Source: Trichoplax sp. H2
Lineage: Eukaryota
Assembly: GCA_003344405.1 (NCBI GenBank)
Contig: NOWV01000118.1
Span: 62,001-126,000, forward strand
Reading direction: 5' to 3'
DNA length: 64,000 bases
The notes below the pieces were generated by a model. The model was not told the DNA's origin and ran no database searches. It saw only the letters and a program-made list of their open reading frames with translations. The position numbers and the translations under genes were made by a program. Shown one piece after another: positions 27,376 through 61,316 of the stretch; the stretch's first letter is position 1, and each line of letters opens with the position of its first letter.

Positions 27376-30217
27376 ATGTATACATGTGCTGGTTGTGGAA
27401 CTGAAATTCGCGATAAACATCTTCTCTTGTCGATGGATAGGCATTGGCATGTTAACTGTTTAAAATGTTCTTGCTGTGGCATAAGATTAGATGACGTAGC
27501 AACAAAATGCTATTACAAATCTGGCTTGATTTTATGTCAACGAGATTATATCAGGTGTGTTATTACTTCCATATTAATTGTTATTCTTTTAAACTTATGT
27601 ATCTATTTCTTTGATGATGAGATTTAATTTACCCAACTCAGATCACAAACTCAGACACTAAAATAAATCCGTAGTTTCTATAGTTACTATTTGTTAAACC
27701 AGGGCATGATCGAATAATATTTTTTAAATTAATCTCTTTTTATGAATTAGTTTAATTGCGTAATATTTTTTGTAAGTGCTTACCGGTACTTTTTTTCTTT
27801 TTTCGTTATCAAATTAAACCTACCTTCTATTTGATGTTATGTTTTAATATCATGGATAGTAAGCCATTTATTTTTACAAATTAGCTATTACTAGAATATT
27901 AACCCAATTTTTAAGGCAGTTCTCCGTCAGTTATAATTTTTTTTTACCTTGATCCATTTTATTAGCAATTGTTGAAAAAAAGAGGTTATAGCCGACTTAG
28001 TCGCTCTGATTGACTACAGCGTCATCTAAGTAAATGATTGGCTTCTATTTTCTTCTTGAATATATATTACAAGGTATCATTTTGACACGAAATGGTTGAA
28101 AGGATTCAGTTTAGCAATATCAGATAGAATTTATCATGACATCGATAGCACTTTTTTTAGTTATATTAAGGTTTATGTACTTATATGATTAGACTATGTT
28201 ACAGTAAATTACCATCAGATCTTAGATGATCTAATAAGTTCTTTTTCGCTACTAAGACGTGCTCAATCGACATATTTTTATCGCAATGGACCTGATTTTG
28301 CGTAAGACAAACTTATTTGATCGTAAAAAATTAAAAATCTTCTTCAAGACAGCTGCCTTCAACGAAGATATCATACAGATTCAACATTAAGGCAGTAGTT
28401 CAGCAGTAGAATCTTGAAATTTCTATTTATGCTAGCATTACAGTTCGCATTAATTTTGGTGTTGTATATATATTTAATCAATCTATCTCTTATTTTAACA
28501 CCGATCATTAATATCAATAATGCTATTTTGATGTCGTTTAAGACCAGTTATCATTTTTTCGCCATGACTGCTGACTATCATGTCATCACTAATAAATTCC
28601 ATTTATTTTGATCTCTTTTATTGACACTTTTCTTTTCATTATATACAGCCACGTTAATTGATTTCCTTTCAGTCAATTTCTTCTTAAACTTGTTTATTCT
28701 TTTCTTTGCAATCCATTGATTTAAATTCCGATTTAATTAAACCATTACATGCTGTAGGGGAATACTTAAGGGGAAATGAGGCATGATTGTTTTCGTCATC
28801 GGTAACCAAACGATTGTTCAATGTTATTCAATAATAGTTGTGAAGGCCATAACACTATTGTCTATTAATTTTTTAATTCTCATGGTAGGGAAACTAATTT
28901 ATCATAGTAAAGCATGTTAGGATTGCTAATTGAATTGCGTGGTTTGAATAAATCAAGTAATTGTTTTCAGTTGGGTGAAAGTCGTTTACTTCAATATATG
29001 TAAACTTGCTATACATAACTACATCCTCCATAGACACCGATATTTTTATAGGGATTAAATATCCTACTATTTTCTAATTATCTTCACTTATTCAACTTGA
29101 AATCGTTCAACAAAATGAAATGAAATGATTCTCATTGTCATCATATTCAACCCTGTTAGACACCAGGTGTACAAGATAACTGTAGTTGAGCATTTAAGGT
29201 TAGCTCAATTTTTCTCATCAATCGCAATCTTTTTTTAACGAATAATATCTTCAAACAATATTATGAATTAAAGGTGAAGAAAAGCAATAAGCAAGAAGAA
29301 TACGGTGTGATTCTCTTTTTTCCCCCTTGTCATTAATAGAACTTATCAATTAGAATAATTCAATCATTTTCTATTCTATTCAACCATGAAATATTATCCC
29401 AAGGTTAAATTCGTTTTAACTTTTCAATCCAAAAGGAGAGAGAGAGAAAGAGGAAAAATCGATATTTAAAATTGTACAATGACTTACTATGAGTTGCCTA
29501 AGAGAAGAAAAGAGTATTAGGTTGGCAGAGGCTACTCATCAGTTGACAAGTTTTTTATGATTTAATAACATTATGATCTGTTTCCAATTAATTTTAATTA
29601 CACCTATTATCTTTTTTGATATCATTAAAAATGATTGCTTTTATAATTAGTATAGCTCATATCACAAGATTACATAATATTCTGATTCATTGGTTTACAC
29701 TTCTACAGTATAATCATAAACTGATCTTAGCAATAAATTGATTATACTTTATTACTTCGTCATTCTTATTATGATAATTATATTGATCATGATGATTACA
29801 TATATTGATTTTTATTACTCGTTATTGTTGTTATGATAATTAATATTTATAATAGCATGGTAGTATTCTTATTTGACTACAGTATGAAATGATGATTGTA
29901 TTCTTTCATCTTCAAAGTTTCTTTATAGATCATAAAACATGTCATAATATTAAATGCCACTATTACTATTCTACAGGCGCTTTGGTAGTGGTGGCAGCTG
30001 TGCAGGTTGTCTTCAGGCAATATCACCCGACGAGATGGTTCTCAAGTTAAATCAGAGAGCTTACCATCCCAATTGCTTTACCTGTGTAGTATGTACAAGT
30101 CGATTAACATCGGGTGATCGTTTCCGACTAGTTAACGGCCATATAGTATGTGAACATCACAGTAATACATCGTTGGCTACAAAGAAGACGATGAATAATT
30201 CTTTATGCCGGAGCTAA
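27376..30217 (+). CDS. LMO4: LIM-only protein, LMO4-like, 2 coding exons, ~139 aa
   Basis: Exons 27376-27554 (AG|gtgtgt) and 29977-30217 (ctacag|G). LIM1 CAGC...WHVNCLKCSCC...CYYKSGLILCQRDYIR and LIM2 FGSGGSCAGC...YHPNCFTCVVC...GDRFRLVNGHIVCEHH. The motifs CLKCSCC, KSGxILC, GDRFxxxNG and CEH are characteristic of LMO4. Stop codon shortly after LIM2. An in-frame TAA at 27352 and no acceptor in between support the ATG at 27376. Confidence 0.93.
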
Positions 30218-36260: not shown

Positions 36261-37397
36261 TTATTCAGTTATGATTGAATGGGCTGAAGTAATTGATCTC
36301 TTATCTTTAGCACGTTTATTCTGAAACCAAACTTGGACGACCCTTAAATCTAAACCAACCTTGGTAGCAATCATTTCTCTGGTAATTCTACTTGGTCTCG
36401 GTTTAATTCGATAGACCGAATTAAGCATTTTTAACTGCTGTTGTGTTATAGATGTTCGAGGTCGTTTAAGATTGGGATGATGTAGCTGAAAATCTACAAA
36501 AAAAATTGTGATAAATTGGGTAATCCATATCTAATCAATATGTAGAAAATCTTTAGATCAGGCAATATTTTCAACATTTTAGCAGCTACTTAGCTTACCA
36601 TCGCTACACATTATGGCGACATCATAATCTTCTTTACAAATTGGTTTACCTTCATCCGAAATGTAATATTTATCGCCTACTTTAAATTGTCTACTACATA
36701 CTATACAAAGGAGGCAGTTAATATGATAGCAAGAGCCATGAAGTCGGTAAACCATCTCATCCGGTAAGATACCAAGATTGCAACCTTGACATTTACGTCC
36801 AAATCGTCTATTGCAATTTCGTGTACCAGTTGATACCAAGATAGTATGGGAGGGTTACGAATAGCATCATAGTTCCAATGGGAGTATTTAAAAAATTATT
36901 TAATATATTAAATTCTTCAAGAAATCTTCATATAATTACGTAAATATTTTTCTTGGAAATACAGCTAATCTTGCTTTGAGTGTTAAAAATAATCAACCAT
37001 CTAAAGTTGTATGAGTATAATCTAGCATGACATCATTATTGGGTACTAGGAATTTAAAATTCATGCTATACTAATCGACGCAGTATCAGGAAGAGGATGA
37101 TAGTTTACAGGTAAAAGTTGTAGTCTCTCATGAAATAAATTACTAAGTAGGGATATCATAGTATCAATTATTTCAAAATGAATCAATATCCCTCTATTTA
37201 TAGAGAATGACTGGTTAGTTTACGTTACCTGTAGTAATGCATGCTGCAATAGATTGACTCTTCCTTTACAAAACATTTTCCTTCGAGGTTTTTACCGCAA
37301 TCTATACATGAAATGCATTTGCCGTGCCATAATTGATTATCCATTTCGTAAATGTTCCTATCGCGAATTTCTTCTTGGCATTTAAAACACAGCAATT
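36261..37397 (-). CDS. Lhx3/4: LIM-homeobox transcription factor, Lhx3/4-like (core exons; 5' exons uncertain, possibly extending to ATG at 38639)
   Basis: Exons 37397-37229 (LIM1 CFKC...WHGKCISCIDC...CSMHY), 36807-36599 (LIM2 RFGRKCQGCNLGILP...YHINCLLCIVC...CKEDY) and 36493-36261 (homeodomain [57 protein letters not shown], stop TAA at 36261-36263). KRPRTxIT, [13 protein letters not shown] and the short LIM2-homeodomain linker favour Lhx3/4 over Lhx1/5. Confidence 0.88.
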
Positions 37398-38944
37398 CTA
37401 AAATAAAAATTACATACGATAGCAATGTTAGTCATTAGAAATTTACGGTATTGCCAGAATTTTACGAGATTAGCATTGAGATTAAATTCCTTATTATTAT
37501 CGAAATGACTCAAATGCGCTAGAGTAACGCGTAAAAGCGTGGCGATATCCTTTAGGCGTAGTGATAATGTTACTGCCACGATTTAATAAATCATGCTTAG
37601 AGTACATAACTGGAATACGGAGTAAATCAAGAGTTCTTCTTGTCGATAGTTTATCGTAGATACTATTATAATTTGAATTTTTTTGTCCTAAAGATTAATT
37701 CGGCTATAACAATCCCGTTATTCGGATTTATTTGAACCCTGAGAATTAGTTTCATAACAATTACTAACGACGTAAAGTAGGACTATGAAGCGACTTGATC
37801 CAGAATGATTAGATCGAAAGTGATTCATTTCCTTAAAAGCAATGGTCAATAATTCTGTATCAAATCTACTATACATATTAGATGAGAATACCTTCAAGAT
37901 AATTGACTTCGTTGACTTCTGTTTGAAGATTTTGCTGTAACTTGGGTCTAAGTTCGATACGTGAATCCTTTATATTAATAAAATTTCATTACTCGTCGTT
38001 ATGTAAACCATCATGCAGGTAATAACGACTAAGAAACCTAGTCTAAAAGCTCAACTCAATTACTGCTGTAATAAAAACGATAAAACATACGTAATCTATC
38101 TGATAAGCATATAATTATTATTTAATTCTCTAGTTTATACAAATTAAATAACATGGAAATCACAAATTCAACGCTGATGGCTATACTGAAATCTTACCAT
38201 TTCGGCGACTATCTAATTCCAAAAGCTTCAAATCTTTTCTGCAAGACTTAAATCTACCATGCAAAACAAAGAATGAATACTTATATCATAAAATAAGTTG
38301 AGACAGTATGAGAAGATTTTAAGAATATCTAAATGGCTGCATCAGAATAATTAGAAAAATTAATCCAGTAACTTGAGCAAGAAATTTCTGATATAATTTT
38401 AATTTAACTAACAGGAACGAGTTCGGAATTTTAATTGATTAATATTTTGGTTATTAGATTGCTTACCTTTGAGGTATATTTCTTACTCTAGTTGCTACTC
38501 CCTGTGCTTGCATGCAATAACCCCTAGATGAACAGTTTACAGTATTTCCGAAGATTGAGCATTTAAAAGTGCTTAGCAGGGTGTATAATGCTGTAATTAC
38601 AAAATCAGGAACTTTATAATCTATGTTACCAATAGCCATATCGTTGCTCTTGGATTATAAGTTCATTTGTAATTTCCTCGACGATTGTTTAAATCCGGTT
38701 TATTTTACATTATTTGTGAACATATACATACATAATAGCACTCGCTGCCATATTCTAGCCATTGGCTGAAAATGGATTAATATCAAGTAACAGATGGTAA
38801 GCTTAATTTGATTAACTTTGGTGATCAAAGGGTAAATTTCAACAATATATATGACTTTCTGCGTGATATGAATAGCGCCTGGTTGATAAAATCGTCTAAT
38901 CAAATTATTTTTGTTGAAGATATGCCAAACTAAGTAAGACTAAC

Positions 38945-40025
38945 TGTTAAAGTCTACGATCCTAGTTCACAAAAGTTGCCAAAACTTTAAATACACTAGA
39001 AGAAGCAAATAGCTTTCAGAAAATTAAATATTAGCCACTACAGCTATTTTAAAAGATTAAGAATTCTAAAAATTGCCAAATTCTTAATAGACTAAAATGA
39101 GGAGTATGTAGCTTTCAGAAAACTAAATATTAGGTATCAAAACTGTTTTTAAAGTCTTTGATCTTAGTTTTCAAAATTGCTAAACTTTGATGGACTAGAA
39201 AAAGATGTAAGCAATATTCAGGAAGCTAAATATTAGCTACTATAACTGGTTTAAAAGTCACTAATTCTGCAGCTGTTCTCAAAATTACCAATCTCTTAAT
39301 GGACTAGAAGGAGTATGTAGCTTTCAGAAAGTAGAATTTAGCTACTACAATTGATTTTAAAGTCATCAATCCTAGTTTCTAATAGCGTCAAACTATGAAT
39401 GGACTAGAAGAAGTATTTAGCTTTCATAAAACCAAGTATTCGCTACCACAGCTGTAATTAAAAAGTCTTTGATTCTAGTTATCAAAATTACCAAACATTT
39501 AATGGACTAGATGAAGTACGTAGCTTTCAGAAAATTAAATGTTAGCTTCTGCAATTGCTTTGAAGTCTTCGATTTTAACTATCGAGTTATCAAACTTTTA
39601 AAGGCCTAGAAAAGGAAGTGCTGTACGCTCATTTTGTCTTTAGATATATAGAAAAAGAAAAATATGACTTAAACTAACGTGTAAATACTCTACTTTATAC
39701 CAACATACAAGAATTATCAAAGCACGTGGTAATAATTCTTATATAATTTGCCATCTAAAAACTTAAAGCATTAATAAACATACCATATGTAGCTTTCAGA
39801 AAACTAAATAATAGCTACTATAATTGCAATACAATGTCTTCGATTCTAGTTCTCAAAATTATCATATTTCTAACGGACTTAAAAAAGCATATAGCTTTCA
39901 GAAAACTAAATTATTGCTATTACAGCTGATTTAAAAATCATCGATTCTAGTTCTCAAAATTGTCCAAAAAACTTTAATGGACTAGAAGAAGCACGCAGCT
40001 TTCTGAAAACTAAACTTTAGCTACT
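38945..40025. repeat. Tandem repeat array, ~100-105 bp unit, ~9-10 diverged copies, upstream of Lhx3/4
   Basis: The unit tagctttcagaaaactaaatattagctacta ... gattctagttctcaaaatt ... aatggactagaag recurs near 39010, 39109, 39212, 39318, 39418, 39521, 39790, 39892 and 39996, with an interruption at about 39620-39780. Confidence 0.88.
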
Positions 40026-41790: not shown

Positions 41791-44700
41791 GGAATTCTTG
41801 TTGCATTATCTTCAGGTAATTTATCATAGTACTTAGCATACTGCCATAATAGAACAGTTGGGGTTGTATCTAGTGAAACGGTAGTATCATAGTATGGCAA
41901 TTAGGTTAGCAATAACGCAAAATAGATCTGACGATAGCAAATAGCTTCTACAATTTGCAATTCTAGAATTTTGAGGATCTCTTTTAGTTAATTTAATCCA
42001 TCTAGTTATAAATTATCATCCTATTCAATAGCAGAAAACTATAAATTTTATGGGTTAAACCCTTTTAGTGTTGCAAATTATATCGTAAGCTACGTCAATC
42101 GGAGAAAGCTTAAAAATTACTTTTGAGTATGTAGGTGAATAGAAATTTGCAGGGAGGATAAATATGGTGTATTTGACTATTTTAATCTAGCTAATAGCAA
42201 TCTAAACGACTCTATTCTTTCAATATTTTTAGGAAGATGTACAAAGTATAATTTCTGGTCACAGCGGATCCTGGCTATGGACTAAAAATCATATGCATCT
42301 TACATTACGGAGATACGAGTACTTATGCTAGTGTAAAACAAAATAAGTTATCACAATACCATGATGGATGACGAATCTAATGCTCTAAATTAGCATGCTC
42401 TGCATTATTGGCTATATTGAAAAGCAGGAATTAAATATATTAGTTAGCCTTGTTGTATATCAATGCTGAAATATCATTTGATTAGTTGAGTAAAGTTAAT
42501 CTACAGTATTGACATAGTTACTTATTTCGTATATCTATGTATAAAGACCAAAAAGTATAGAATTGGTACATATTAATCTTCTTTTAAATTTCTAATGGAT
42601 TAGGAGATATCTGCTTTGAAATTGTAATTTTACCAATAGATGTAGCTTCCAGCTTAACTAATGCCGCCATCAGAGCTAGTAGAATAGAGATTACTACGAG
42701 TTTGAGTATAATTAAATGAGTAGTACTCGTAGAGTAGTATATCATAAATGATTTTCTACGACAGGAATTAGAAGCAAGTTGCAACCAGCTGAAATGGACG
42801 ATGTTACGGCTCATTTCAAATAATATTGCTGAAGCTGCCAGCGATTAAAATAATAAATAGAAAATTTAGCCTTTTATCTTTAAAGTAATGGCTAGTTATT
42901 TTCGGCAAGATAGTACTGCAAATTTAAACTTAACTTTAAGAACTTGTGAGAGTCTTCTGTTTTGTAACCTATAAAGCATGTAGTTTTATCATCTGAAAAT
43001 AGTATCACTAGTCCGATGGTATTTATATGCAAGATTAATTATTATCTACCTTATGTTAGCTTATTTTTTCTCTATCTAAATATACTTGTATTAGCACGTG
43101 GAATTGAAATCTATAATTATCAGTAAGGATTTCCGTAGACCATTCTAAATAGATGAGCTTGCCGTCATAAATCGATTATTGAATAATCCAAAGTCAAAAA
43201 TAATATTGACCATGGCGTACTATCTAAGAGTTCCTTCGATCAAGACTCTTGATATCGATGAAAAAATGCTTAAAAAGCTAGATTGCGATTACAAAACACC
43301 TCTATCTAAATAGAGGTTTTTATACTGTAGTTCATGAAGACATCGATAAAAGTAGCTAAATAGATATATTTTACCCTGAATTGTCGCTTTCTTGCTTAAG
43401 TTTGCATTAAAATATTGTAAAGTTGCTTCAGATTTTGCTATTCATAGCTATAAAAATGTTGCAGTATATAATTTATATCTTGTGTGGCATAAGGTTTAAT
43501 ATAATCTTAATGGAAAATGATGTTGAAGTGTAGATCTCTTCCCAATCTGGCACGATAACTGTTTCCCTACTCTATCGAAGCGTTGAAAGTAAATTTGTCA
43601 TGTCAGAACTTTGCTTAGGATTAATCTTGATCAAGAAAAGATCACTGTGACGATAATTGTAGTTTTTGGCGGTCGACCTAATGTTGACATGTGTCAGATT
43701 TCGTGTAGAGTCTATCATGGACTTAATGTTTCACCAATGTTAAAAGCAAAGCGTGGGATGAAAAATAAAGTTAAAGGTGGTGTATTGAATAAACTATAGA
43801 CTGCATATGGTGTTTGGCTGCATTTAATGTTAACAAGCAATAGAAAGAATTGATTTATGTTTACATTCAGTTGTGAAGTGGATTATTATAGATATCAGCT
43901 TGGTACGCTTTTTGTTTGCATTAATTTCATGAAAAAGTACTAATGAGATCCATCAATAACGGTCAAATTAGCGATCAATTTCGAGCTATCGACACAACTT
44001 TGATGGCAGGACAGTAGCTAGTGAAAGAAGACAATATACAAATATTACTCTTATTATAACGGCCAGATTTTCCTTTTTTTTTCAATTGATTACAATTGAT
44101 AAACTTTATTTCATTTGTATGGAAGTTATCAACTCCATATCATATCGAATCGTTGTGTATCTATTATAATGATTGCTTATATTTATAATTTAACATAAAC
44201 GTGCTGACAACTTTGATTGTACAACACCAATAGGGAAATCAAGAATAAAGGCTCATGGTAGGATTGAGCTTAATTTTTCTATCCATTCGTTACTCTTTCT
44301 TCTAACTAGTCTGCAACTGTAAAAGTATGCAGTCGATGCAAAACAAAAGAAAAATAGCTTACTGCAGACTTTCCTTCTTCTTACTGTAGTTGTTGATTCC
44401 ATCAAGGCGCCATTTAGCCACACCTTATTCATTGTTAGTTAATGGCTAAGAGATCCATAATGTGAATAGATTTGATTGACATTTAATCCTCTAAAATTGT
44501 TGCCTAATGGATTGATTGGTGGGCTGATTAATGTAACATTAAGCTCCATGATTATACCAACTGATCAATTGCTAGACCGCAACATCATTGTATAGTACAG
44601 TAATATAGCGCTAAAGTACACATAATGATAACGTTGCAATCGTAGTTATCGTAACTGTAATTCCTTAAACGCCCTTCCACTTTTTTCTACTTTCAAGTAC

Positions 44701-47300
44701 GATATAAAACGCTATTGCCATCGAATAACTTCAGTTTAATTAATCCTTGACTATTGGCACTGTTATATATTGTATATTGATACACGATAGAATCATTTTT
44801 AGCATCGTTATTGACTTATCTTTCGGTAAACACGCTAAATGAGGTTAGAGCTAGACGACCACGCAATATTTCAACTTTTCTTGCTATCTTGATGAGAAAA
44901 TTGCGATTGACTGCAACTCGATCTAGTTATTATTGAGTTCCCTATCATCGATTTGAATACTCTTCAACTTGTGATCATCATTATTATCCTTGGTCGATAT
45001 CATCGTTTTCTTATTCAACGTAATTATCATCACCATTGACTATCAGCAAATTTCTTGTCCTACAATAAGACTACGCTTGGTTATCATCATTTTTTACTAT
45101 CTTTCTACTAACTACTACGTACGATAATCTTGAGGAATTTTTTTAATAATTAATTGATTGTACTAGATTGTATTCAATAACTTGACAAGGTAACCGTCGA
45201 TCAATATCCTTGGGCTTGTTTTATATTCTCCAATCCAATTGTAAAGTCAATATCTTTAACTTAAATTACCTCTAAGCTAGTAACACTGAATGTCTAACCA
45301 CATTTTGTAAAAAAGTAGATACATTGAGGCTAGTCTATTTTTATCTATTCATCATTTACTTAACTCTAATACTTTATAACAACTATATCAGCTATTACAA
45401 CTTATCCATACTTGCTTCCATCCAACCCACGCAAAAATACTTATTGATCATCTTATCCATTATTCTACTATCTGTAACTATTTTATTTTTTTCAAATCGA
45501 GTTAGCACCAAGTTAGCTATTGTCCACTGCATATTTCATGACAGTGTCTCCAGTTATTCAAAATTTTATGACGATATTACCTCGAGATTGATGAAAGAAG
45601 ATTATTTTTTACTATAACTGGATAAAATGCAGTTTACTTGGCAAGATTAAAAAGAGTCTGGAAAGTAGTGGCTAGATGGATTCCGATCAAAGAAATTATC
45701 CCAATCCAGCAAGTCAACAAGATGTAAATATCACGACATTGCATGCTATTTAGGCTAATATTTTACAAAAATGGATAGGTCAATCGTATTGATATTGTTG
45801 GTGCCAATTACTGCAACAATGAGTTTCAAAAATGCTTCTCAACGTGATCCATGTTGTTTTGTATATCGTTTTATACAAATTTTATTTCTGTCCCAATCTA
45901 AATATGATTAATACGACGTTATCACTTAAATATTTGGCATTCAGTTCTTAATGCATTCTATTCATCAAATTGTATCATACTGACCCAATGTATAAGCTAA
46001 TTTTATAATGATCTGATATTTAGATATTATCTAGTATTTATCTATATATCCTACCATACTGTATTATCTTCTTATAAATTGAACTAAAGATGGTACTGAA
46101 GTGACTGTCATCGAGAGTTACAACTTTAATTGAATATCAATAGATTACTTTATCAATATACAACAGTCAACAACAAGTTCAACTAACTAAACTTCTGACT
46201 CGTATCATTGAGCCTGGGAAAGATAAACTGATAATCAAAAATCACAATGTTTGTAAATTGTAGAGTTATCATTAGTTTTAAAGGTGATTAAAATTAAGTA
46301 TTGCAACCCTTGTAGTAACTGTATTTAACATCCACTAGAATGCATATCATCTCCAAATAGAAGCGCTTACGTTATACTAAATCTCTTCATGCTCGTCATT
46401 TTTATTTCTAAAATTTCCTTCCTAATTATTCCTTAGTAAAGTATTAAATCTTAATAGTATTATATAATTATAGCCCACGTGCATTTAAAAACGCCAATTG
46501 CCTAATCTAAGCACCATAAATTTATTTCATCAATTTGCTAGCTTCATAATTATAATGAATATTTAATTAAAAAATACTTCAAAAAAGATATTCATAGCTA
46601 CTTTATAATAAGTTTTTTGATCACATATAGCATAATCTAATAAAAGTGAGTGACTTATCCAGCATTTTAGAAGCCTTGTCATGATCCTACATTCTGTATA
46701 TACTTAAAAGATAAATAGAGAAATCTATGACTGTTTTCCTCTACAGTATACTAATAGTTAAAATCAATCTCCATGAAGGCAAAGTCTTATCAGTGGTAAT
46801 AAATACCCACAATTGTAGATACATATACTGAAAAATATAGTATGTGAATTAAGATGAAAGTGCGGCAATCATTTGCAGACAAAAATAATCCTATTTTATT
46901 TTGGTTATACTGTTTATCTGATTATCAAATAGTTGGGATTAGTGTAGGAGACAAGGGATAATAGAATATAAAAGAAAATTAGAATCATGGAGAAAGATAA
47001 ATAGCGACTATCCTAGATAAGGGAATGAGTGATATATTGATTGAATTTATTATTCACGATCTCTTTTTTAAATCTTCACTCCGCTAATTTATTATCGCGA
47101 ACTAATAGTGATTTCCTTTTTACTTCTGGATTAATCTACGATAGGGATAACGATTTTGTGATTTATATTTTACTGTCTTGTTTCTAACTATGCTATATTT
47201 CGATTACTCATCTTTTCGCCGTTTGAATAGATAAAAATATATACTTATAAAATATTCTACTAAAGTTAAACTGATAATATTATCTTTTTAATCATTTTAG

Positions 47301-50015
47301 ATAACAGTTGACCCTCTTTGTTCAGCTTGTCATCAAGTGATTTATGATCGTCATATTTGGCGTGTAGATAATTGTTCTTGGCATCCTAATTGTCTAAAGT
47401 GTTTCAAATGTAATATGTCACTTCAAGGATCTACCTCATGCTTCATCAAAAACAATCATCTGTATTGCAAATCCGACTATTTTAAGTAAGTGAAAAGTCA
47501 CTACATTTAGTACATTAATACTTATATCATAGATTTATCTATCGCTCTTTCTATAGGCAGTAGATTTGCAGATGTACAGTATATTATACAAATCACTAGT
47601 CCTGCAACCCGTTGCGCTGCTGACGGACTATGGCTAATAACGCTATCTATATTACACTTGCAAATACCTATATTGTTGATATGAAACAATTGTCCATTGC
47701 ACTCTTGATAGACCATTGCTATCGAAAGTTCAGTTGACGATTCTTCGACATTCCCATATCCATTTAAGAATTTTAGCATTTTGAAAATTTTTATTTACGC
47801 ATACAATGCTGCATACTTAGTGTCATTTTATAATGATGATACGAGATGTATTCATCTGGAAATGAGTCACGATCACTAGCGCCAAGAACATTAAATAGGC
47901 TTCAATAATATTCTTAATACTGCAAGATTACTAGTAAATTAGGTAGCTGACTATAGTATGATGGGAAGTAAAATTATCTCATAAATATCACAATGCGAGT
48001 AATATTTTATAGAATGGAATATCTCAATCACGCACATGTTTATATTAACAGAGATTGTATTGATGATATTTCGTTGTAAACGCGGTCACAATAAGTTCGC
48101 AATTTGCAGTATTTTACGATAATACGTCGCCCAACCATACAAGTATATTATCCTACAATAATCTTAAAGTATACGTATATAGTTTTACTACCGTATAAAT
48201 GAGGTACAAATATGTTGATTACTAACGTTAGACTTATTCAATGGTCATAATTCAAATTACCGATGATATTTACCGATAGAAAACTAAAACTTAAGATGCA
48301 AAGCAGAAGCAATTTGAAATACATAGAACTACTATGAATCCAAATAGCATTATTTTATTAATTTCGAAATTAATCTGTCAGTGATTTTAATGGTAAAACT
48401 AAAAGTTATCCTTATAAGATTAGACAACCTTAATTTAGGTCATAAAATATGAAAAATTCTAGTGCTAACAGGTTCATTTAGATGGAAATCTTCACTGGCT
48501 GCACAGGGTATAATCTAGCATTACTTTTTCAGATGAGAGTTATCACAATAGAGAAAATATCTAGTGCTTATATAGTCACTAACAATTGAATTTTTAAGGC
48601 TAGAAGAGTCTTTAAGTGAATGAGGTATATTTTTATACATAAACTACTTCAACTACATCATAAGGCATTTGGAATAATGACTATTAATGAATGATTATTA
48701 ATAATCATGCTTTTCTGTAGAATACCTTCGTTCAGTAGATTTGTATTGAAAATCACCGTTTCTGGTCGAACTTACTCGTTTAACTATTGACATGCGCTTT
48801 TATAATTAGGAGTACTTATTTACTATTATCGTATATCTATTATCTGCATTAAATAATTTATCAAATATCTATAAAAAATATTAGAATTACGTATTATATT
48901 TACGATTGATAATAGATATACTTGTCGTTATACCGTACATTTCCTTATTAATTGCTTATATACAAGTTATCAAAGAAATCTCGAAACTTTTCTCTTTCGT
49001 AGTGCATTAACTACGGTTAACGTCTTGTAACATTTTTTAAGTGACACAATTTACTCCAGATGTTTTGCGGTATTAATTTCCTAGTGCTGTATTACAATAA
49101 CAAAGTTATTTGTTTCTACATTTGATCATTTTCACATGTATAAATCTATAAAGTATTTTAGTATCATAATATGAGTCGGGCTACCATGAAAAGCATGGCG
49201 CCTACACTAGTTGTTGATAATACTGCAGTGGATACATTCTCTGATGTCGTGCGAATGCAGTGATCGGAATAATATTGTAAAATCTTAGAGCTATAACCTA
49301 ACATAGCGCTGCTATTGAACATTACCGATAATTTACTGGAGAATTATGCAAGAAATTTTGCAATCTGTTTATCAGTGATAATAACATTGAATAAACGATT
49401 ACTAGTTAGTGACTTTCAGGGGGATAGATGCTAAGCTTATTTTCGTTAGATAACATAATTTGATGGTTGTTGTTAATACCGTTATCTATGGCGTATAGGT
49501 AGTTTTATAGAAAGGCATGGTTTTATAATATTATCCATGTACTATTGACTGAAATTATTACAACTGTACTACAAAATGATTGATTTTTCAAAATAAAGTT
49601 AGGTTTAGTTTTGTCATAGATAATCTAGAACTTTACCTTAACCTTCTGACGATGGGAATGTTGTCAGTATATAGTATCATTTCGTAGATAGATACGAAGG
49701 AGGATAAACATGCCAGTAGACTCGCTGTGTTGTAGCTTTTCAATCTATAGCAAACACATTGTAAAATCTTGTCCATTTGCTATCGATAGGGAGTTTGGCG
49801 TTAAATGCTCTCGCTGTAAACGTTACATAACATCGGATGATTGGATTAGGCGCGCTAAAGATAATGTGTACCATTTGGCTTGCTTCGCTTGCGATGATTG
49901 CAAACGGCAACTATCAACTGGTGAAGAATTTGTTTTGAAAAATAATCGTTTGTTATGTCGATTACATTATGTCGAACAAGAAAATTCGGGCGAAGATAGT
50001 ATTCCATTAGAATAG
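47301..50015 (+). CDS. Lhx6/8: Lhx6/8 (arrowhead)-like two-LIM gene, apparently lacking a homeodomain; start exon not identified; could be a pseudogene
   Basis: Exon 47301-47485 (ttttag|ATA...AA|gtaagt) encodes CSACHQVIYDRHIWRVDNCSWHPNCLKCFKC...SCFIKNNHLYCKSDYF. Exon 49790-50015 encodes EFGVKCSRCKRYITSDDWIRRAKDNVYHLACFACDDCKRQLSTGEEF...LCRLHY, matching the Lhx6/8 signature DWxRRA...YHLACFAC..CKRQLSTGEEF. In-frame TAG at 50013-50015. I found no WFQN-coding sequence on + before the Lmx 3' end. Confidence 0.82.
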
Positions 50016-51774
50016 AACAACGGCTACTGATATAGGTAAGCATCAAGCTGATTTAATGAGTCATTTAATAAAATTTATAATCTTGATAAATCAAATTACA
50101 AATTTTTATTTGGATCTAACCTAAGAGGGGTATGAATATTATAGCCACAAATTGGAATATAATATTCTCATTAAATAATGCATAGTACTTTTTTTGAATA
50201 GCATAAACCGAATGGAATCACAGTGCCGCTGAAAGTAAGAAAATTGGCGTGTTCCATAAGTATAAGCTTCTCATGGTATCCAGCTTATACGAGTATAATT
50301 ATTCTCCGAAGAGGGGGCTGTCTTTTAAGACAATTAATATGTTGATATTTCGTAATAAAGTGTACTTTTTACGTTGAATCTAACCATGGCATCTTTAATA
50401 TATATTATTTTAAATTATCATATGAGCGATGCATTAGCAACTTTGGATTTTATGAGCGTGGCAAATGACATCGTCATAATTTTTTGTTAGTCTGTGACAT
50501 GTTATGCTATTGATAAATTATTAATTGTCTAGTGCTACATGCAGACTTGTTGCAATTGCGTACCATATTGTCCAAATACAACAGCTATTAAAATATTCTC
50601 TTAAAATGTAACTATGCATGATTCCATGCATTAGGTATACACACATCTGGGCCAAGTATTATGTAATTACCTATAAATATTAGGTAATGCCTCACTGTGT
50701 AGATTGCATGCAGCTAGATGTTACGTATATTAAAAAGCTGCTTATCTTTTAGATTTATTAATAATTATTAAAGGTAATCATTAACGAATTAATATAATTT
50801 AATCAAGATATTTGATATTGCAATTTGAAGATGGCATTGGTGATAATAACAAATCTAATCTTGAACCAAAGTTACTTTTTTTATAAAATTGTTACAAATA
50901 CCATTCAACATTTATCCGCTATTAGTTCCACTATAACTTATCTTTGATTACCCATTTCTACTAATGTTATTGCTGAAGGATCTTAAAATATTAATTCATT
51001 TTCTGTATAATATTCCTTAACTTATTATTATTAATTGAGCAAAATTGATCACAGAAAGTTGTTGAAAGATATCATCTCAAGGCTCCATAATTTCAAGTGG
51101 TATCAATTCATCTCATTAAAATATGGTTTAATATGTTCGTGCTTGTATATTAATATCATTTCACATTGTCAATATTTTACTCACTCTATTTGCCTAATTT
51201 GCTTCTTTATCTGCGTGTATGTTGTAATTTTATGCTAGAAGACGTTCAACTTTTAGTTTTTTATACAGTGTAAAATCGACGAGTATTGTTCCTCTCCATT
51301 AGTCTTTTGAATACTCGTATTTATGCAGTTGTACTTATGAATGAAACAAGTTAATAACATTTCGTTGACACTGTCGTTTTTTCAATCAATAAAACGACGG
51401 ATTATCTGATATATGCGCGGTATGGAAATCTCTTTATGCACTACATGAGCTCATATCAGTTACGATTAGCTAACCCCTATTGAAGAATCATATATTTCCA
51501 CATTACTTGACTACAATCTCAAATAGGTGTTGTGCCTTGAATAATAACAAAAATCATCAGGAAGGTGCCGTACCAGTAGGCATCTTTGCATAGTATGAGG
51601 TAAGTAGCGGATAATAGAGAGCAGGACTACATCTAATAAGTAAAAGATGCACATAGTCATAGTTTAATGTGCTTTATAGTTTGCATAGTAGTGGTATACT
51701 AGTACATTAGAGGTCCTATATCCAGTAGATATTTACGTATACTGTCTATCTGTGTATCTTTATGTAGAATCGCA

Positions 51775-52300
51775 AACGTAAATTAGAAATTTTACTGGTG
51801 CTAATTGATGTAGGGTACATGTCTTTAGTAGCTCTGGCATATTGCTCCTTTAGCCATAATGGGTGCTATTAGTGTTTTTGACATTTACCTACTTGATATA
51901 CGGTAAGGTATCTCTAGAGTAAATTAGAAATTATACTAGTGCTAACTGATATAGAGTACATGTCTTTACTAGCTCTAGCATATTGCTCTATTAGCCATGA
52001 TAGTGTTAATAGTATTAATAGTGTTTTAACATTTATATCTTTGATATAAAGGATCTCTAGTATAAATGAAGAATCATACCGGTGCTAACTGATATAGAGC
52101 ACATGTCTTCACTAGCTCTAGTATATTGTCTTGTTAGCCATGATGGATGTGAGGAGTGTTATTGACGTTTTATGACGTTTATCCATTAAATTAAAGATCT
52201 TTAGTGTAAATTAGAAACTGTACCGGCGCTCCCTCATGCCCAGCACATATCATCAGTAGCTCCAACAGATTGTATCATTACCATAGTGCTGTAAGCGTTA
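51775..52300. repeat. Tandem repeat, ~4 copies of ~143 bp
   Basis: taaattagaaat ... ggtgctaactgatatagagtacatgtcttt ... tagctct ... atattg ... tagccat recurs near 51779, 51920, 52063 and 52207. Confidence 0.85.
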
Positions 52301-53088
52301 ATAGTATAGTTAGAATTTAGATACCTGGATAAAAGTGATCTTTCGTCCTCTACATTAAATGTGTAGTTCGATATAGATTTCGATCACAGAAAACGCTAGG
52401 TAAACTCCTAAACACTTCAATAATAATTATTAGTATTCTACGATAAACAATTATTAAATTGAGTTTCATTGCCAGCGAATCGCCTCGTGTAAGATAATAA
52501 GAACAAAGTTGTACTGTGAATACCAACAACGGCGTTACTATATATTAAAGTANNNNNNNNNNNNNNNNNNNNAGGAGTGTTATTGACGTTTTATGACGTT
52601 TATCCAATAAATTAAAGATCTTTAGTGTAAATTAGGAACTGTACCGGCGCTCCCTCATGTCCTGCACATATCATCAGTAGCTCCAACAGATTGTATCATT
52701 ACCATAGTGCTGTAAGCGTTAATAGTATAGTTAAAATTTAGATACCTGGGTAAAAAGTGATCTTTCGTCCTCTACATTAAATGTGTAGTTCGATATAGAA
52801 CAGTTTAAGCATATGGGCTTGGATCAATAAATTCCCGAATTCTCTATACTAAATTTTTATAGACCTTAACCGGAAAAGCTCGCAGATCCTGTACTAAGTT
52901 CGTGGAGATATTTCAACAATCACAGAAAACGCTAGGTTAACTCCTAGACACTTCAATAATAATTATTAGTATTCTACGATAAACAATTATTAAATTGAGT
53001 TTCATTGCCAGCGAATCGCCTCGTGTAAGATAATAAGAACAAAGTTGTACTGTGAATACCAACAACGGCGTTACTATATATTAAAGTA
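52152..53088. repeat. Duplication across a 20-N gap (52152-52552 vs 52573-53088); probable uncollapsed haplotypes differing by a ~115 bp indel
   Basis: Both copies start aggagtgttattgacg and end atatattaaagta. About 52800-52915 is present only in the second copy. Confidence 0.88.
52553..52572. other. Assembly gap (20 N)
   Basis: Run of n characters. Confidence 0.99.
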
Positions 53089-55728
53089 TACATTAATTAG
53101 AGGCAATCATTTGTAAAATTGCCTGTAAATCAATACTACTAGACTTGCTTTGCTGTAATATAACTGGAATCAAATTAGAAATATTCTCTTGGAAGTATTT
53201 ACAGAAGAAGCCCACGGTCGTAGATTACGATATGCTCCCATACCCATTAATTTGCCACGCAGCGATGATTCATTACTACATTCTTAGACAGGAAAGCGAA
53301 AAAAGCCCTTAGCATTAAATAGCTTAGATTATATTTCCTAGTACATCGCTTACATTGTGTAAAAATGTTTCTGCTTCGAAAACGCCTATAAAAGTATACG
53401 TGCAGTATGTATCTAGTCATACATGGTTGCATTCTAGGCGGATTAATCCGATTGTTGTCTAGCCCCCACGGTCTGAAATATCAGCATAAAGATTGCTTGC
53501 ATGACATTTAGAATCTCAAGTATTTACGTAGTATGAAAGTACAGTAAAGATCAGTAAGCACTATCAAAGTAACTGTGTTTGATAGTTGGATTTCTCGTGG
53601 TGGTGTAAATTTTCGTGAATAAGTTTATGTGACTTGAAAGCCTTATGTTTCTAGTTCCGAACCATGTATTAACTATAAATATTAATTTTTAGACATCGAA
53701 AATATCTCACTATGAAATTGATTATTTTAAATAGTCGCTTGTTCACTATTGATTCGATCTGCTTCTAACTACGTTTAGTAACGAAATTCTGAAAACAGGA
53801 ATGCCAAATTGGATGTTAAATTTTTCCTTGAAGATTGATATATCGATAATCACCGTTAGTAATACAACAACGTCTCGTCGTCCGCATGTCTTCGTACTGA
53901 TTACTGTTAATGACACATCACAGTAATTAATCAGTTGTATTTCGTTCAGCTGATTTTCTTGGTAGTTTCGAAGATTATACACTTAATAGCAAGGGTAATA
54001 ATCAATTCGTGAAGGTGTGAAGAATAACACCGGATAACTAGTTTACGAAAATATAACCATTCATTTAGAATTTACTGACGATGCTTTCATACCTTAAATT
54101 ATTCTTAACGAAAAAATTGATTTCGTATTGCTATAAATGGTACGGTAAGATAGTCCTAACAGAAACTATCGTATCATCAGTTCCGATCTTCTACCTGAGT
54201 TCTACATATTAGTTGGATGTACTGTAGCTTAACTCATTTTAAATGCGTCGTTTTCCCGATTATAATTCATTTCACGGAGATAAAGTTCATGAAGACAAAG
54301 TTAAAACTGTGATGTTCAAATATTTATAGAATATTTTAATCAATGATTAGGATTGTATATATATATATATACTGATTCAATCAATTACATATTTTATAAT
54401 TCTTCACAGATATTGTTATTTGTAATAATACTTCAGAATCTGTACATTTAAAGATACAATCACCAACTGAAAGGTGAATCACGAATGTTAAAGCTAACTT
54501 GGGCTTTTAAATTTGGAAATGAAAAGATAACGTCTAAAGTTCACACTTTACAACATTAGTGGAGAAATTCAGCAATCTGACAAATCCTTAAGCGTGTAAA
54601 AAGTTAGAGTTAAGCACCCCTAGAATACACGTGATGCAATTGCAGGTGTTGTCATAAGATCATAAGAAAAAGTACAGTACAAGTTATAAATATACATTAG
54701 AGTGGAGTATTATTCCATGTATCTACTAATAGTACCAGCTATGCAGAAAAGGATGTATTATGGCATGCCTACTTATATCAGTTATATGACCTGCTAAAGG
54801 ATCATAAGTATCAATAGCAAATCACAACTTCAGAAAGTTATGGGCATGGTTTGTTATCTTCGGTTTTCTAGCATTAAAACTGTTGTACATTGAGCATAAT
54901 ACTATTCTGGAAGTTATGCTACATTAAATGCAATGTAAAAGCTATCCATTGATAATATAATTGAACACTATCGCACAATGCAGCAACGATCTAAGTGATT
55001 TATGTTAAAAGTGCTAAACGGTAATGATCCTGGAATACATTACTGTCTAACTTATGTCTAGAAACATTCTCGGTAATAATTGCTGATCGCCATAAGATGA
55101 GATTGATGTAGTTCAAAATAATTATACAAAGAGATTTGGTTAATTTTAAGTAATTTCGTCAGTTATGGAAATACATATTTATATTTTGAATCACCATAAA
55201 TTATAGGTACTATTACTTCAAAATTAAAAAATTAAAAAATTTTTCCGATAATGTGTATGATTATGGGCCTTTAAAAAAAGCCAATCGATGTCCTAGTATA
55301 AATTCTCACACTTATAATAGTCTTGAAATGCTGCTGTATTAATTCCGTTATAATAGAAATAACACGGTGATTTGGGCTAGTTAATTTAGAAATTGTAGAC
55401 GGTCTGTTTTAAGTTGAAAAACAAGATATTTCTTTCCAATCGCTTGGCTGCGTAGATCAAAGCATTCCTTTCTTCACCATAATCGATAGACTGTAAATAG
55501 AATTGATCATGAATTAGCAATTGCGTTTATTCAATTCACCTTACAGAAGTAATGGGTCAAAATAAAAAAAGGAACCATTTATCAAATATTGCTAAAGCTG
55601 CTTTTGAGCATTTTTATGATGGAAATGAAAATGAAAAATCTGTAATTAAGAAAGACATCTAGTATATTATACGCTCATTGATTTACAATTTTTACGACTC
55701 ATTTTGAATCAGTGTTAAGCTAGTCTAC

Positions 55729-56422
55729 CTAGTCTTGTTTATTTCCTGAATATTCTCCAGCGTCTGAGCTATCGGAATCTTTCATGTCACCTAGTAAATT
55801 GGTATTAGGAGAAATACAGCAATAGTATTACTACAACAACGATAAAAAATATCATACTGTATGCCTGCAATAGTTTACTAAGGGGCCTCAGATCCTTTAT
55901 GATACTCTAATTTAAGACACCTACTTTGACTGGAATTTTCATCACGATAAGAATATTTTCGATATCCTTTATGACTTCTAGTTCCTTTCGTTTCCTGATT
56001 TTCTTTTTTCAACTACAGGAATTGACAGGTAATGTTATAATAATACAGTCATGATAACTAAATTCTGAAATTGCAATACAGGCTATTTACTTTTGCTCGT
56101 TGATTTTGAAACCAGACTTGAACTACTCGAGCGCTTAGTCCTGTTTTACGTGATAATTCATCTCTAACCTATTGGAGCGAAGGTAAGAAGCATATCAAGC
56201 AAAATGGTCTGAACCTTGACTACTAAACTAGGCGGACCAATTATTAAGTTACTGTGCTTGTTTAATGTAAAGTAACCTCTTTGCCAGGTTTAGAACTTTT
56301 CTCAAAAGAATCATGAAATAATTTTCTCTGTTGAGGGTTTAATACAGTTCTTTGCCTTTTGGCATTATTGGATTGGTCTTCGTAACTATCTGTTTTCCTT
56401 TTATTATCCATTGATGGAGAAC

Positions 56423-56453
<31 letters not shown>

Positions 56454-59400
56454 TTCTAATATAGCCAGCGATAAATCAGCATTTACTAATATAAAAATAT
56501 TAATCAATGATGGCAACCCATTCTATAGACTTTCTATCGATGCTACGTTGACCATTCTTTAACATACCTATGTCTTCTTCATTCCATGCTACGTTAGCAA
56601 AGGAGGGATTGGTAATTTTGTCATAATCAGCTCTACAATACAACTTTGTATCTTTTAATATATATTCATCACCACGCTTAAGTTGTCGTTTACAAATTTG
56701 GCAGAAAAAACATGTAACATGATAAACTTTCTTGAGAGCTTTCATGACTAATTCTTGCTTCGAAGCAATAATGCGACCACAGCCATCGCATCGAGTACCA
56801 AACAGCCTACAGTGCAATATTCGATAATTTGAAACGTGTATTACAAGCAAGGAAAAAATAACCTTAAAATAGTAAATTAGAGTATTATTGCTCGCTCATT
56901 TTCAAGGAATAGCTTTTAGCTGATGTTAAAATTAACAAATTCAATTATATGGCATGAACGGTAATGCTTAAATGATTTACTTCTACAGTGAAATGGAAAC
57001 AATAATTTCAACCTAATATTTTAGACGTGAATAAGTTATTCTATAATCTTGTAACAACGTCCGTGAGCAATTTTGTAGTTTATGGCGTAAATTCAAAACG
57101 AATTTCATTGATAGAGAAACATATCAGGGGATACTGTGAGGACTAAGTGGGTAAATTACTAAAAAAGGTTTCCAGACTGAGTTGCTTATAGAATAAGGAA
57201 AATAGCAATAAGATTATACGTTAAGGATGGTCTCGAAAGTGGTTATATAAATAAATGATTAGAATTTTACTAACTTTCATCAATTACGGTTCGTTTCTAT
57301 CCACAAAATCTTTCATTATTACGTAATACTGTAGGAATATATGCAAATTCTTAGAATATGCTATCATTGTTCCATCATCCTATCCATTTTCAATATACAG
57401 AACAGGTATTGCAGGATGGAGAATGTTTATCGTTTCAATGAAGAAATAACTGTAGCTGTCTGAATACCGATAATAGACAGTATTAATTGAATTGCTTTAA
57501 GTCTTATTTCAATTTTCTGGTTGAATGTTTCTGAATCACTAATGATGGCTACGATATTGAATTTAAAAGATTGACAGATATTGTTAAATAGTCTACTTGA
57601 CAAGATGTTGCCAAATAGACCAGTAATCTGTCAAAGTAAATATATTTATGTAGATTATGAAATGGAAATGATAAAGAGAATGAATTGAAAGGCTAAATTT
57701 AAATATCACCTGGAGTAGACCATCGCCTCTCCAATTAATTGTGGTTTACAGTGAATGGGGTAGCTAGATGATTTATAATCGTTTCAGTAAACACTGACTG
57801 AATATTTCAATGTACACTAGCCACAGTATTTTTTTATACCCTACTAATTTGTCTGGTATTATTCTTCTCCAGTAGATCTAATAAATTATTACATTATATG
57901 TCCAATAATTATAATAAGTACATTATTATCCCAGACGACAAAAATTAAAATATTGGAGTCTTATTATGATCCGTTTGTTACGGCTAATTAGAATTATCGG
58001 TTATTAGTTTATATTAAAAAATAGATAGGAGACGCAAGTGATGATATGAAGATTCAGGCTTAAGCAGGGGTGTTAATTTCATCGCGTGACAAAATTTAAG
58101 CGATATCACTATTAGAATATTAGATAAACTAAAGCTAAGTTGGTTTTATATTTTTTTTAGCATATGCTATTTGAAATAGTCAATTTTATAGTTTGAAGGG
58201 ATCACTAATGGCTTACATGATTTCATATTGACGATGCTAATGATTCAGTTTCGAAACTTAAATAAATTTTAAGAGTTACCTTTATTTGTGAGCAAAAATA
58301 AATAAGCTGTAAATGATGATGACGATAACGAAGAAGGTAATTGCGATCAATATTGCAATTCCATACTAGCGAGTATTGTCACATATTGTAATGCCCGTAA
58401 AAGCAGCCAGTTTTAATATAACGATGAATATTGTAAGAACGATCTAGGAACCATAGTATTATGTTCTTAATGTTTTAAGTACACAATAAAAACTGATCGA
58501 TAGTTTTCTTTCAGTAGGTAGGCATAATTATCCTATTATCGATATCTACGTGTTTGATGAAATATAGATATTGTATGTTTTGATAATTTTAAAAGTATAA
58601 GTGATGCAGATGATCAAATTTGCACCTCCTTTCGAAAAGGTTGATCAATGTAGAATGTAGTGTAGTTGTCGTCAATGGCTTACCAGTAAATGGAACAATA
58701 AAAAGACAACCAATGAAACGGATAAAAGAAGTTATTTAAAAGAATTGTTAATAGCAAGCATACTGTACGTTGGTATAGTAATGTTCTATCTAACTAGAAT
58801 AGTGAAACTGTATTATCTTGCCAACAAGAGCAACCATGATCGATGATGGAAGTATATTGAAAAATGAATGAAAACGAATTGAAAGGAAGCAAAATGGACT
58901 AAAATAATTTAGGAAATATCAACCTCGTCATAAGAAGTCTATTCGATGTCTGTGTATGCATATCAACATCTAGAAGTGAGTTAGTTACCATGACATAGCC
59001 ATTATGTACCTAGTAAATAGTGAGTTATTCTTTATAATACTTAGATAATATATTATAGAATTGGACTTCCTAAAAATTACTACAGGACATCCACTTATTA
59101 GGAAACTATACATTACACCATTATTGATATGTAGTTGTTAGAGTAGTGATCATATGATTGAGTTAACCAAAATAAATAGTGAAAAATTGGCTTAGAAAAT
59201 ATGCTTTTATCGCCGGTTCAGTAATGCTAATTATCAAGATCTATATGAGAGACGTGGTATGATTGATGAGATTTTACCTTTCTCAATACTTTATAATCAT
59301 TACTGCAGTATTGATCACAAACAGAAAATATCTTATTGTTTAGGCAGCAGTATATATATATAAATTACATTATCATTGGACATAAAAATGCTCATGTAGA

Positions 59401-61316
59401 GCACTTTCTGATACTTCTATACGTTGCTGTTGAAATATTATTTCAAAATTCTCATATCAGGAAAATTTACTGTATTCGCCTATTTAATAACTAAAACTAA
59501 ATACTTAAAACTTCTGAATCGTCATATTAATTTTTATTTTTGATTTACATGATATACAGTAATTCCACGCAATCCAAAACAAGTGCTTTAGATATACTCC
59601 TATTTATCGTCTCAATTGCATGTACTTCCATTAGCTATTTTATTATTGATAGCGTTATGTGAATCTATATTTATAGATTATATGTGATATAGTTCATAAA
59701 GATAAGGATAAGAGAGGTTGTTACGTAAAGGTATATTCTGAATGGAACATTTAGCAATTTACCAAATTGATCATGTCACGACAGCAGCGCTACAGAGATT
59801 GTAGATACAAGCAGTAAGATATTAGCTTTAAACTAAGAGTACATTATCTTAATTTATTCCATTAACCAATCGTTAAGTAATCGCCTCAACTGGCGATTAC
59901 GTGACTGCACTACTACTATTAAAAAACTCAACTTTTCCATAATGCATCACTGGAATGCACGAAATTAAAAATTGATTCCTAAATTTTTAATCAACTTCGT
60001 TTTTATGATACTTAGAGGGGTTGGCATATCTTTAAAGTGAGGGAAAAACTCCAATAACAATAATCACTATTATAGCCCTAACAAAAGGCAATAATACAAA
60101 AAAATTGAAGACGAAATCAAGATTTTCCATTTTATATAATGGTGGACTGACTAATATGAATACCCTGGCATAAAAGTGGCTCCACACTCGAGGAGCATGT
60201 TAAAATGTTGTAATGACAATCGTACAATGTCCTAACCTTTCAAAATCTGTAGCTACTAAACTATACTATTATAAGACTAGAAAAATATTGAACAACGATA
60301 GATGATGGTCATCGTACGATTCCTTACCATAAAAATCGTTCAAACCTACATTAAATACCTTATTTGACTAAAATTGTGTGCATTGTTCATTACAGCAAAG
60401 TTTCTTACTTATCGTAGTCTTCTTTACAGTATAACTTGTGATCCTTGATATAACAACTTTTAGACAACGGCTGAGTACATTTATAACATCTTAGGCAATC
60501 TTCATGCCATAAATCGTCGGCTACTTTTAATAGAAATTTATCTTGAATGAGTTGATTGCAGCCAGTGCACTTCTGCTTAATTGCTAATAAAGAGTGTGGC
60601 ATAGCAGTACGATTGTCAACTATAACAGAAACAGAATAAGTTATAGCTGAGTTTTAATACAGTATTGAGAAATAGCCAAACAAAATCATCCGGTCAGATA
60701 GAACAAGTAATTATTTACGATTTTTAAATGAGAAAGACGGATTAAAATTAATTCTAAACCAGTAGTATAACTTTAAAACTTGGTAGTACATTATTCCTAG
60801 TCAGTATATTTGACTAATCGCAATTATTGATAGAAGAATAGTGTCTACAGCTTGTGTATACATTGATAACATGTAGAAAGGGTGCAACAATTGATTCTGA
60901 GATGTAAATGGAAAGTAGCAAGATCCTGACGTGAAAAATTAGAGGTCAAAACTGTGATCTAGATGTAATCTATGTATGGATAATCCTCAGCTATGATTTA
61001 ACACTAAACGCCTTAGAAGGCAGACAGTTGATGTAGCCTTTTGAGCTCATCTGTAAACTAAATTCTTTTAACTGCATAGATGCAATACGTCAATAATATC
61101 CATTCATCTACAAACTGAGCTAATCGTAATGATGTAATAGATGCTTTAATGTTGAATCGATTTGGTAAATAGATAGCGATGTATGATTAAATCTTTTCGA
61201 TCTTATCGAATGATTTTTAATTAGTTCATCAATGTCCTATTTCTTTTACATAGCCTAAAAATAATTTTCAACATTTTCAAGATATTGCTCTTACCTGATG
61301 CCATAGTAGAAGTCAT
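55729..61316 (-). CDS. Lmx1: LIM-homeobox transcription factor, Lmx1-like, 7 predicted coding exons, ~292 aa
   Basis: Exons 61316-61295 (MTSTMAS, G|gtaaga), 60619-60409 (LIM1), 56806-56568 (LIM2), 56455-56277, 56168-56091, 56012-55925, 55790-55729 (sum 879 nt). Homeodomain [58 protein letters not shown] has the Lmx-diagnostic QQR, SFExSSKP and WFQNQRAK. The first and last exons are less certain than the core. Confidence 0.92.
56422..56456 (-). repeat. (GAA)n coding microsatellite encoding a poly-glutamate tract in Lmx
   Basis: (ttc)n on + strand; translates as 12 consecutive E at the start of the exon before the homeodomain. Confidence 0.85.

Follow-up and report, generated by a model that had tools for sequence, protein, structure and literature searches.

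The LIM-only (LMO) proteins are thought to have derived from an LHX-like gene after loss of its homeobox (PMC3305314), and they are described as antagonists of LIM-homeodomain factors (PMC3305314, PMC9310833). The closest described case is the Trichoplax Arrowhead gene itself, reported by Srivastava et al. (2010) as encoding two LIM domains and no homeodomain, lying in a tandem cluster and being expressed by RT-PCR (PMC2828406). Their model 20437 has two exons and the same TAG stop as the gene below, and is without start codon or 3' end; an L-L entry for the gene is repeated elsewhere (PMC3283466). Among the primers listed, the RT-PCR reverse primer stops just short of the stop codon and those for RACE are all for Hydra, which leaves the 3' end unmapped in that study (PMC2828406). 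A literature search returned no paper on the 3' end of the gene, on constraint on its LIM domains, on a homeobox relic or on other placozoans; most subscription journals, where placozoan cell-atlas work may treat the gene, were beyond its reach.

The core finding, an expressed homeodomain-less Arrowhead, has been known since 2010 (PMC2828406), and the gain made here is thus incremental; the first-pass annotation of this DNA had rightly suggested that the missing homeodomain may already have been noted in surveys of placozoan Lhx genes. The gene has stood in tables of early-animal LIM genes on the two-exon model, and the full transcript closes its 3' gap. The complete exon structure and a spliced 3' UTR intron are additions to the published record, together with evidence of constraint on the LIM domains and an unproven hint of a homeobox relic.

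The window, by which we mean the whole 64,000-nucleotide stretch of Trichoplax sp. H2 DNA analyzed, holds four LIM genes, Lmo (+), Lhx3/4 (-), Arrowhead (+) and Lmx (-) (Table 1). Compared with model 20437 (PMC2828406), gene, cluster, LIM-LIM protein and stop are the same, and by eye the coding sequences differ in one tail residue (E/D) and one synonymous codon. The gene described here has four exons and a start codon (ATG 45676), and its 3' UTR holds a poly(A) signal and a spliced intron. Three side observations concern the neighbors. The Lhx3/4 homeobox (36294-36470, -) runs unbroken through helix 3, which the published model 53309, probably mis-spliced, does not reach; the Lmo LIM pair has a very long branch and an unstable tree position; and diverged repeats of about 120 nt, noted by eye, lie at 39000-40000 between Lhx3/4 and Arrowhead. 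Islet is also present in the genome.

Table 1. Features of the Trichoplax Arrowhead locus and its surroundings (positions in the window, except the Ldb exon, which lies on another sequence, L093).
Feature	Position	Strand	Description	Basis
Lmo	27376..30217	+	two LIM exons	class name from PMC2828406
Lhx3/4	36290..37400	-	LIM-LIM-homeodomain, limits approximate	
Arrowhead exon 1	44660..45723	+	about 1 kb of 5' UTR, then ATG 45676 and 16 codons	RNA contigs, ORF scan
Arrowhead exon 2	47301..47485	+	LIM1	RNA contigs, Pfam
Arrowhead intron 2	47486..49789	+	phase 2, divides LIM1 from LIM2	GT..AG joint, 3 of 4 runs
Arrowhead exon 3	49790..50035	+	LIM2, 14-residue acidic tail, TAG 50013-50015, 20 nt of 3' UTR	RNA contigs, Pfam
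Weak donor-like site	49999..50004	+	A/GTATTC, phase 1, codon 9 after LIM2	unused in RNA contigs
Arrowhead intron 3	50036..50201	+	166 nt, in 3' UTR, strong donor used	RNA contigs, 3 of 4 runs
Candidate relic B	50047..50220	+	ungapped match to Arrowhead homeodomain consensus, two stops, mostly within intron 3	
Repeat pair	50060..50385	+	degenerate, about 60 nt, copies 50060-50121 and 50320-50385, linking intron 3 and exon 4	
Arrowhead exon 4	50202..51405	+	non-coding 3' UTR	contig ends; AATAAA at 51388
Candidate relic A	50207..50374	+	stop-free 56-codon frame, phase 1 after acceptor, weakly homeodomain-like, helix 2 missing	
Gap region	52152..53088	.	20-N gap (52553-52572) between two versions of one segment	alignment
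Lmx	55790..60600	-	LIM-LIM-homeodomain, limits approximate	
Ldb exon	L093 1378-1845	-	well-conserved LID and KKRKRR	

Transcript structure of the Arrowhead gene

RNA contigs from 4 of the 21 listed runs (X5, X6, X8 and X13) were compared with positions 42000-51750. X8 consists of unspliced pieces only and is uninformative on splicing. The other three come from three separate studies, X13 being recorded as RNA and X5 and X6 guessed to be RNA, and their contigs have three identical GT..AG joints, 45723-47301, 47485-49790 and 50035-50202; the alignment placed the last at 50031-50198, with GT..AG at cut +4. These contigs start at 44660, 44681 and 44839 (exon 1 of X5 is split over two contigs), end at 51279, 51318 and 51405, adjoining AATAAA at 51388, and show no loose end or run-off past the compared stretch. 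Because rare isoforms are lost from contigs, a minor form could be missed. In these three of the four runs the gene spans four exons, about 44660-51405 (+), and its mRNA encodes 152 aa. The extent first proposed, 47301-50035, was too small: it lacked the first exon, with the start codon, and the last, non-coding one.

An ORF scan of the spliced form finds an in-frame TAG directly upstream of the ATG, and the next-longest ATG ORF across the whole mRNA has 38 aa. The leader of about 1 kb (44660-45675, +) holds 7 upstream ATGs, and translation may be limited by it. Loose ends of X8 contigs at 47595-47635 (192 and 25 nt) suggest an insertion polymorphism in intron 2. At 49997 the allele in X6 and X13 differs from that of the window and X5; their joints are identical, and no change is listed at the stop. 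Allelic differences amount to one in the coding sequence (D/E) versus 7 and 12 UTR substitutions in two runs, and are too few to serve as a test of selection.

The strong donor seen in the first-pass annotation 20 nt after the stop (50036, G/GTAAGC) is indeed spliced in the contigs of three of the four runs, and it opens an intron within the 3' UTR. According to the 50-55 nt junction rule, a stop codon this near the last exon junction escapes junction-dependent nonsense-mediated decay. With its stop 20 nt before that junction the Arrowhead mRNA should escape this decay if the rule extends to placozoans.

LIM domain constraint and the missing homeodomain

The reading of two LIM domains with all zinc ligands, followed after 14 residues by a stop, stands. 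Both LIM1 and LIM2 match Pfam PF00412 (E 1.1e-14 and 4.9e-17), eight ligands are complete in each, and the 14 residues are counted from the final LIM2 ligand motif (HY) to the TAG. The proposed Lhx6/8 orthology is also borne out by the LIM pair, which joins 13 of 13 Arrowhead rows with support 98/97 in a 36-row tree whose class labels were assigned by homeodomain motifs and whose bootstrap is not fully settled. This tree holds 13 of 63 Arrowhead rows, 11 of other classes, 5 unlabelled and 7 placozoan, and excludes the long-branch rows of a quick 77-row tree, in which the Arrowhead grouping has an SH-aLRT of 97. Wherever a source name is given, the 120 LIM2 matches listed are Awh, Lhx6/8, Lhx8 or unnamed/hypothetical, and a cnidarian Arrowhead query matches LIM2 here at 58%. 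The gene is an orthologue of Arrowhead by descent and not a LIM-homeodomain protein by architecture.

Among columns whose conservation across 63 Arrowhead proteins is 90% or higher, LIM1 keeps 15/15 and LIM2 33/35 (48/50 in total), the two altered LIM2 columns being V to I and K to R. Both domains are at the lower limit of the family in their identity to other Arrowheads, with 42% for LIM1 (others 40-60%) and 68% for LIM2 (others 69-81%). The end branch measures 0.84, compared with 0.60, 0.63, 0.81, 1.10 and 2.25 for five intact placozoan LIM-homeodomain genes. Being no longer than those of intact paralogues, it argues against a pseudogene, as far as sequence comparison can tell. Pairwise identity among Arrowheads is 89% for the homeodomain and 52% and 77% for the LIM domains. 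The homeodomain is thus normally the more conserved part, yet no homeobox is recognizable here, and the LIM domains have therefore outlasted it. We infer that purifying selection on the LIM pair continued for a long time after the loss of the homeobox. In the collections searched, where relatives of the gene's own genome are possibly absent, no orthologue from a second placozoan genus was recognized (best LIM1 identity 55%).

As first annotated, no intact homeobox follows LIM2. A profile of 89 Arrowhead homeodomains, run over six frames of the window, matches only the Lhx3/4 and Lmx homeoboxes, and its highest score in 50016-55780 is -3.0 bits, within the range of 30 shuffles. The contigs of three of the four runs show no homeobox exon spliced to LIM2, in line with the same annotation. 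With the cnidarian query, homeodomains are at most 45% identical among at least 27 genome matches, versus about 89% expected for Arrowhead. A displaced Arrowhead homeobox was also sought elsewhere in the genome, and none is present among at least 36 Pfam or at least 27 protein matches.

A homeobox hidden in the 20-N gap was rejected too, because the transcript ends at about 51405, upstream of the gap, and the gap is an overlap artefact. The segment versions flanking it (0.4-0.5 kb) are identical at 392 of 401 aligned bases (98%), with 115 nt of indels, and are probably two haplotypes in tandem. The loss of the homeodomain is real and not an annotation error. Just downstream of the transcript end, at 51763-52288, lies a diverged repeat family with a spacing of about 142 nt.

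Sequence downstream of the stop codon

A short intron separates LIM2 from the homeobox exon in both Lhx3/4 and Lmx, so exon 4 of Arrowhead is by position likely the old homeobox exon. The same neighbors have phase-1 donor-like sites after LIM2, at 36598 (Lhx3/4) and 56567 (Lmx), on which a small frameshifting lesion in Arrowhead had been proposed. The used donor at 50036 is phase 2, at codon 21 after LIM2, and becomes phase 1 after a one-base shift; to this extent the proposal holds. The site at 49999, however, is already phase 1 and lies at codon 9, where Arrowhead genes of other animals carry their intron (codons 9-15). Among 61 distinct Arrowhead loci on metagenome contigs (80 loci minus duplicates), with many rows from related hosts, 30 have a phase-1 donor-like site, recognized by pattern, 9-15 codons past LIM2; eight Arrowhead rows run on past LIM2 without intron. 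A shift of donor and a frameshift are about even as explanations of the present state. With either history, the phase-1 frame of exon 4 hits TAA at 50204-50206. The suggestion that the 49999 donor could bypass the stop fails, as this joint is in no RNA contig and, if made to the used acceptor, would reach that TAA two codons later.

Two candidate relics of the homeobox lie in this region (Table 1), and the tests and motifs that favor them were chosen after looking, once the first tests had failed. Against an Arrowhead homeodomain profile, relic A ranks among the top 3-21 of 1524 frames, and it is equalled by 46-151 of 5000 residue shuffles, by 3-9 of 174 natural open pieces and by 2-8 of 832 acceptor-anchored frames; its alignment has 9/47 identities and requires a 10-residue gap. 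Relic B has 11/58 ungapped identities, a level reached at 9 of 100,420 positions (protein level). Over the 400 nt past the stop, treated as one unit, 3-24 of 484 overlapping tiles do as well as the best frame. The similarity of the repeat pair is equalled by 1 of 490 random pairs, and a partial Arrowhead motif of NFxLDSN type lies in each copy (50101 and 50367): F-x-[LVIM]-[DE]-S-N occurs once in six frames of the window, inside one copy, and N-F-x-[LVIM]-D three times, one of them inside the other copy. The pair does not reconcile the registers of the two relics.

Other tests of the relics were negative. HMMER and Pfam gave no significant match and hhalign 0.2%. A frameshift-aware local test gave 109/490, and 21-144/382 over 500 nt. 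At the DNA level, a profile gave 212 and 275 of 410 for relic A and, with indels allowed, 45-296/410 for both relics, and nhmmer with 14 Arrowhead homeoboxes was also negative. A relic homeobox is not established, since HMMER, Pfam, hhalign and all frameshift-aware and indel-tolerant DNA-level tests are non-significant. That some of the traces past the stop are true homeobox residue is possible, in our judgment only slightly short of probable.

Likely function and relation to known LIM proteins

One spliced mRNA encodes a protein with two intact LIM domains, short ends and no homeodomain. One Ldb-type LIM-interaction domain (LID; PF17916, E 2.3e-10), preceded by the basic stretch KKRKRR, was found in the genome, and the nearest solved relatives of LIM2 are the LIM domains of Lhx3, Lhx4, Isl1 and LMO proteins bound to LID-type peptides. 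From what is known of the family, the LIM pair would bind the LID of placozoan Ldb and the protein would enter the nucleus together with it. Having no DNA-binding domain, it would then take Ldb sites from LIM-homeodomain factors and dampen them, as LMO proteins do. We favor, with some reserve, a LIM-only gene that derives from Arrowhead (Lhx6/8), is functional and acts as a competitor for Ldb. That this is an expressed LIM-only gene is close to certain, and maintenance of the protein by selection is probable. By analogy, binding to Ldb is fairly likely, whereas a role mainly as competitor, the dominant-negative option of the first-pass annotation and the weakest step, is offered tentatively; a true Lmo gene already lies in the same cluster, and in one assay Lhx9a with a truncated homeodomain was not dominant negative (PMC9310833).

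The same LIM conservation and branch length would also fit a functional bridging adaptor of LMO2/LMO4 type, which would link Ldb, or a factor with a LID such as Islet, to other proteins that bind DNA. In solved complexes, Lhx LIM pairs are bound to Islet peptides as well as to Ldb, Lhx9a is described as a binder of Isl1 that did not inhibit (PMC9310833), and Islet is at hand in this genome. A second surface would be limited to the 16 N-terminal and 14 C-terminal extra residues, and this role is rather unlikely. Decay of a transcribed gene, which the first-pass annotation kept as an option, would mean that the homeodomain was lost recently and the LIM domains have not yet drifted. The low-edge LIM identities and the long leader with upstream ATGs would agree with it. 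It is nevertheless improbable: the part usually most conserved has become unrecognizable while nearly all conserved LIM columns are intact, the branch resembles those of intact paralogues, and the gene is expressed and cleanly spliced, with a poly(A) signal at the contig end. The argument from timing would be weaker if the homeobox had been deleted in one step.

Least probable by far is an ordinary LIM-homeodomain gene whose homeobox is absent from the assembly or confined to a minor isoform. An N gap does lie 2.5 kb downstream, rare isoforms are dropped from contigs, genome searches are lower bounds, and the 2010 primers stopped short of the region in question (PMC2828406). Against this, the transcript ends before the gap, the gap joins two versions of one segment, the best homeodomains in the genome fall far below the identity expected, and the same stop is present in the published model, which comes from another allele (PMC2828406).

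If Ldb is bound by the LIM-only Arrowhead protein, the LIM code, which patterns neurons in other animals, would have two LIM-only brakes in an animal without nerves, and the gene would be a test case for the origin of LMO proteins. A bolder version is doubtful: that the gene is a second, independent LMO-type birth from a LIM-homeobox gene, of an age that makes it common to all Placozoa, and acts as an Ldb competitor, with faint traces of a dead (perhaps duplicated) Arrowhead homeobox in the last exon and the 3' UTR intron. If true, the proposed origin of the LMO class would be replayed in a living animal, 17 kb from the true Lmo gene.

Among known systems, the gene resembles Lhx6/8 (Arrowhead) in the clade of its LIM pair and differs in having no homeodomain and no DNA binding by itself. 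With the LMO class it shares two tandem LIM domains, short ends (152 aa here) and the absence of a homeodomain. Its origin appears separate, as a clade with the window's Lmo is rejected (p-AU 0.0199) in a tree where that row is a long branch and no named LMO of other species is included. Vertebrate Lhx9a/b and Lhx8 splice variants likewise keep the LIM pair and lose DNA binding (PMC9310833). Those variants, however, are alternative isoforms that accompany a full-length form and retain some of the homeodomain (PMC9310833), whereas the sole form seen of Trichoplax Arrowhead lacks it wholly.
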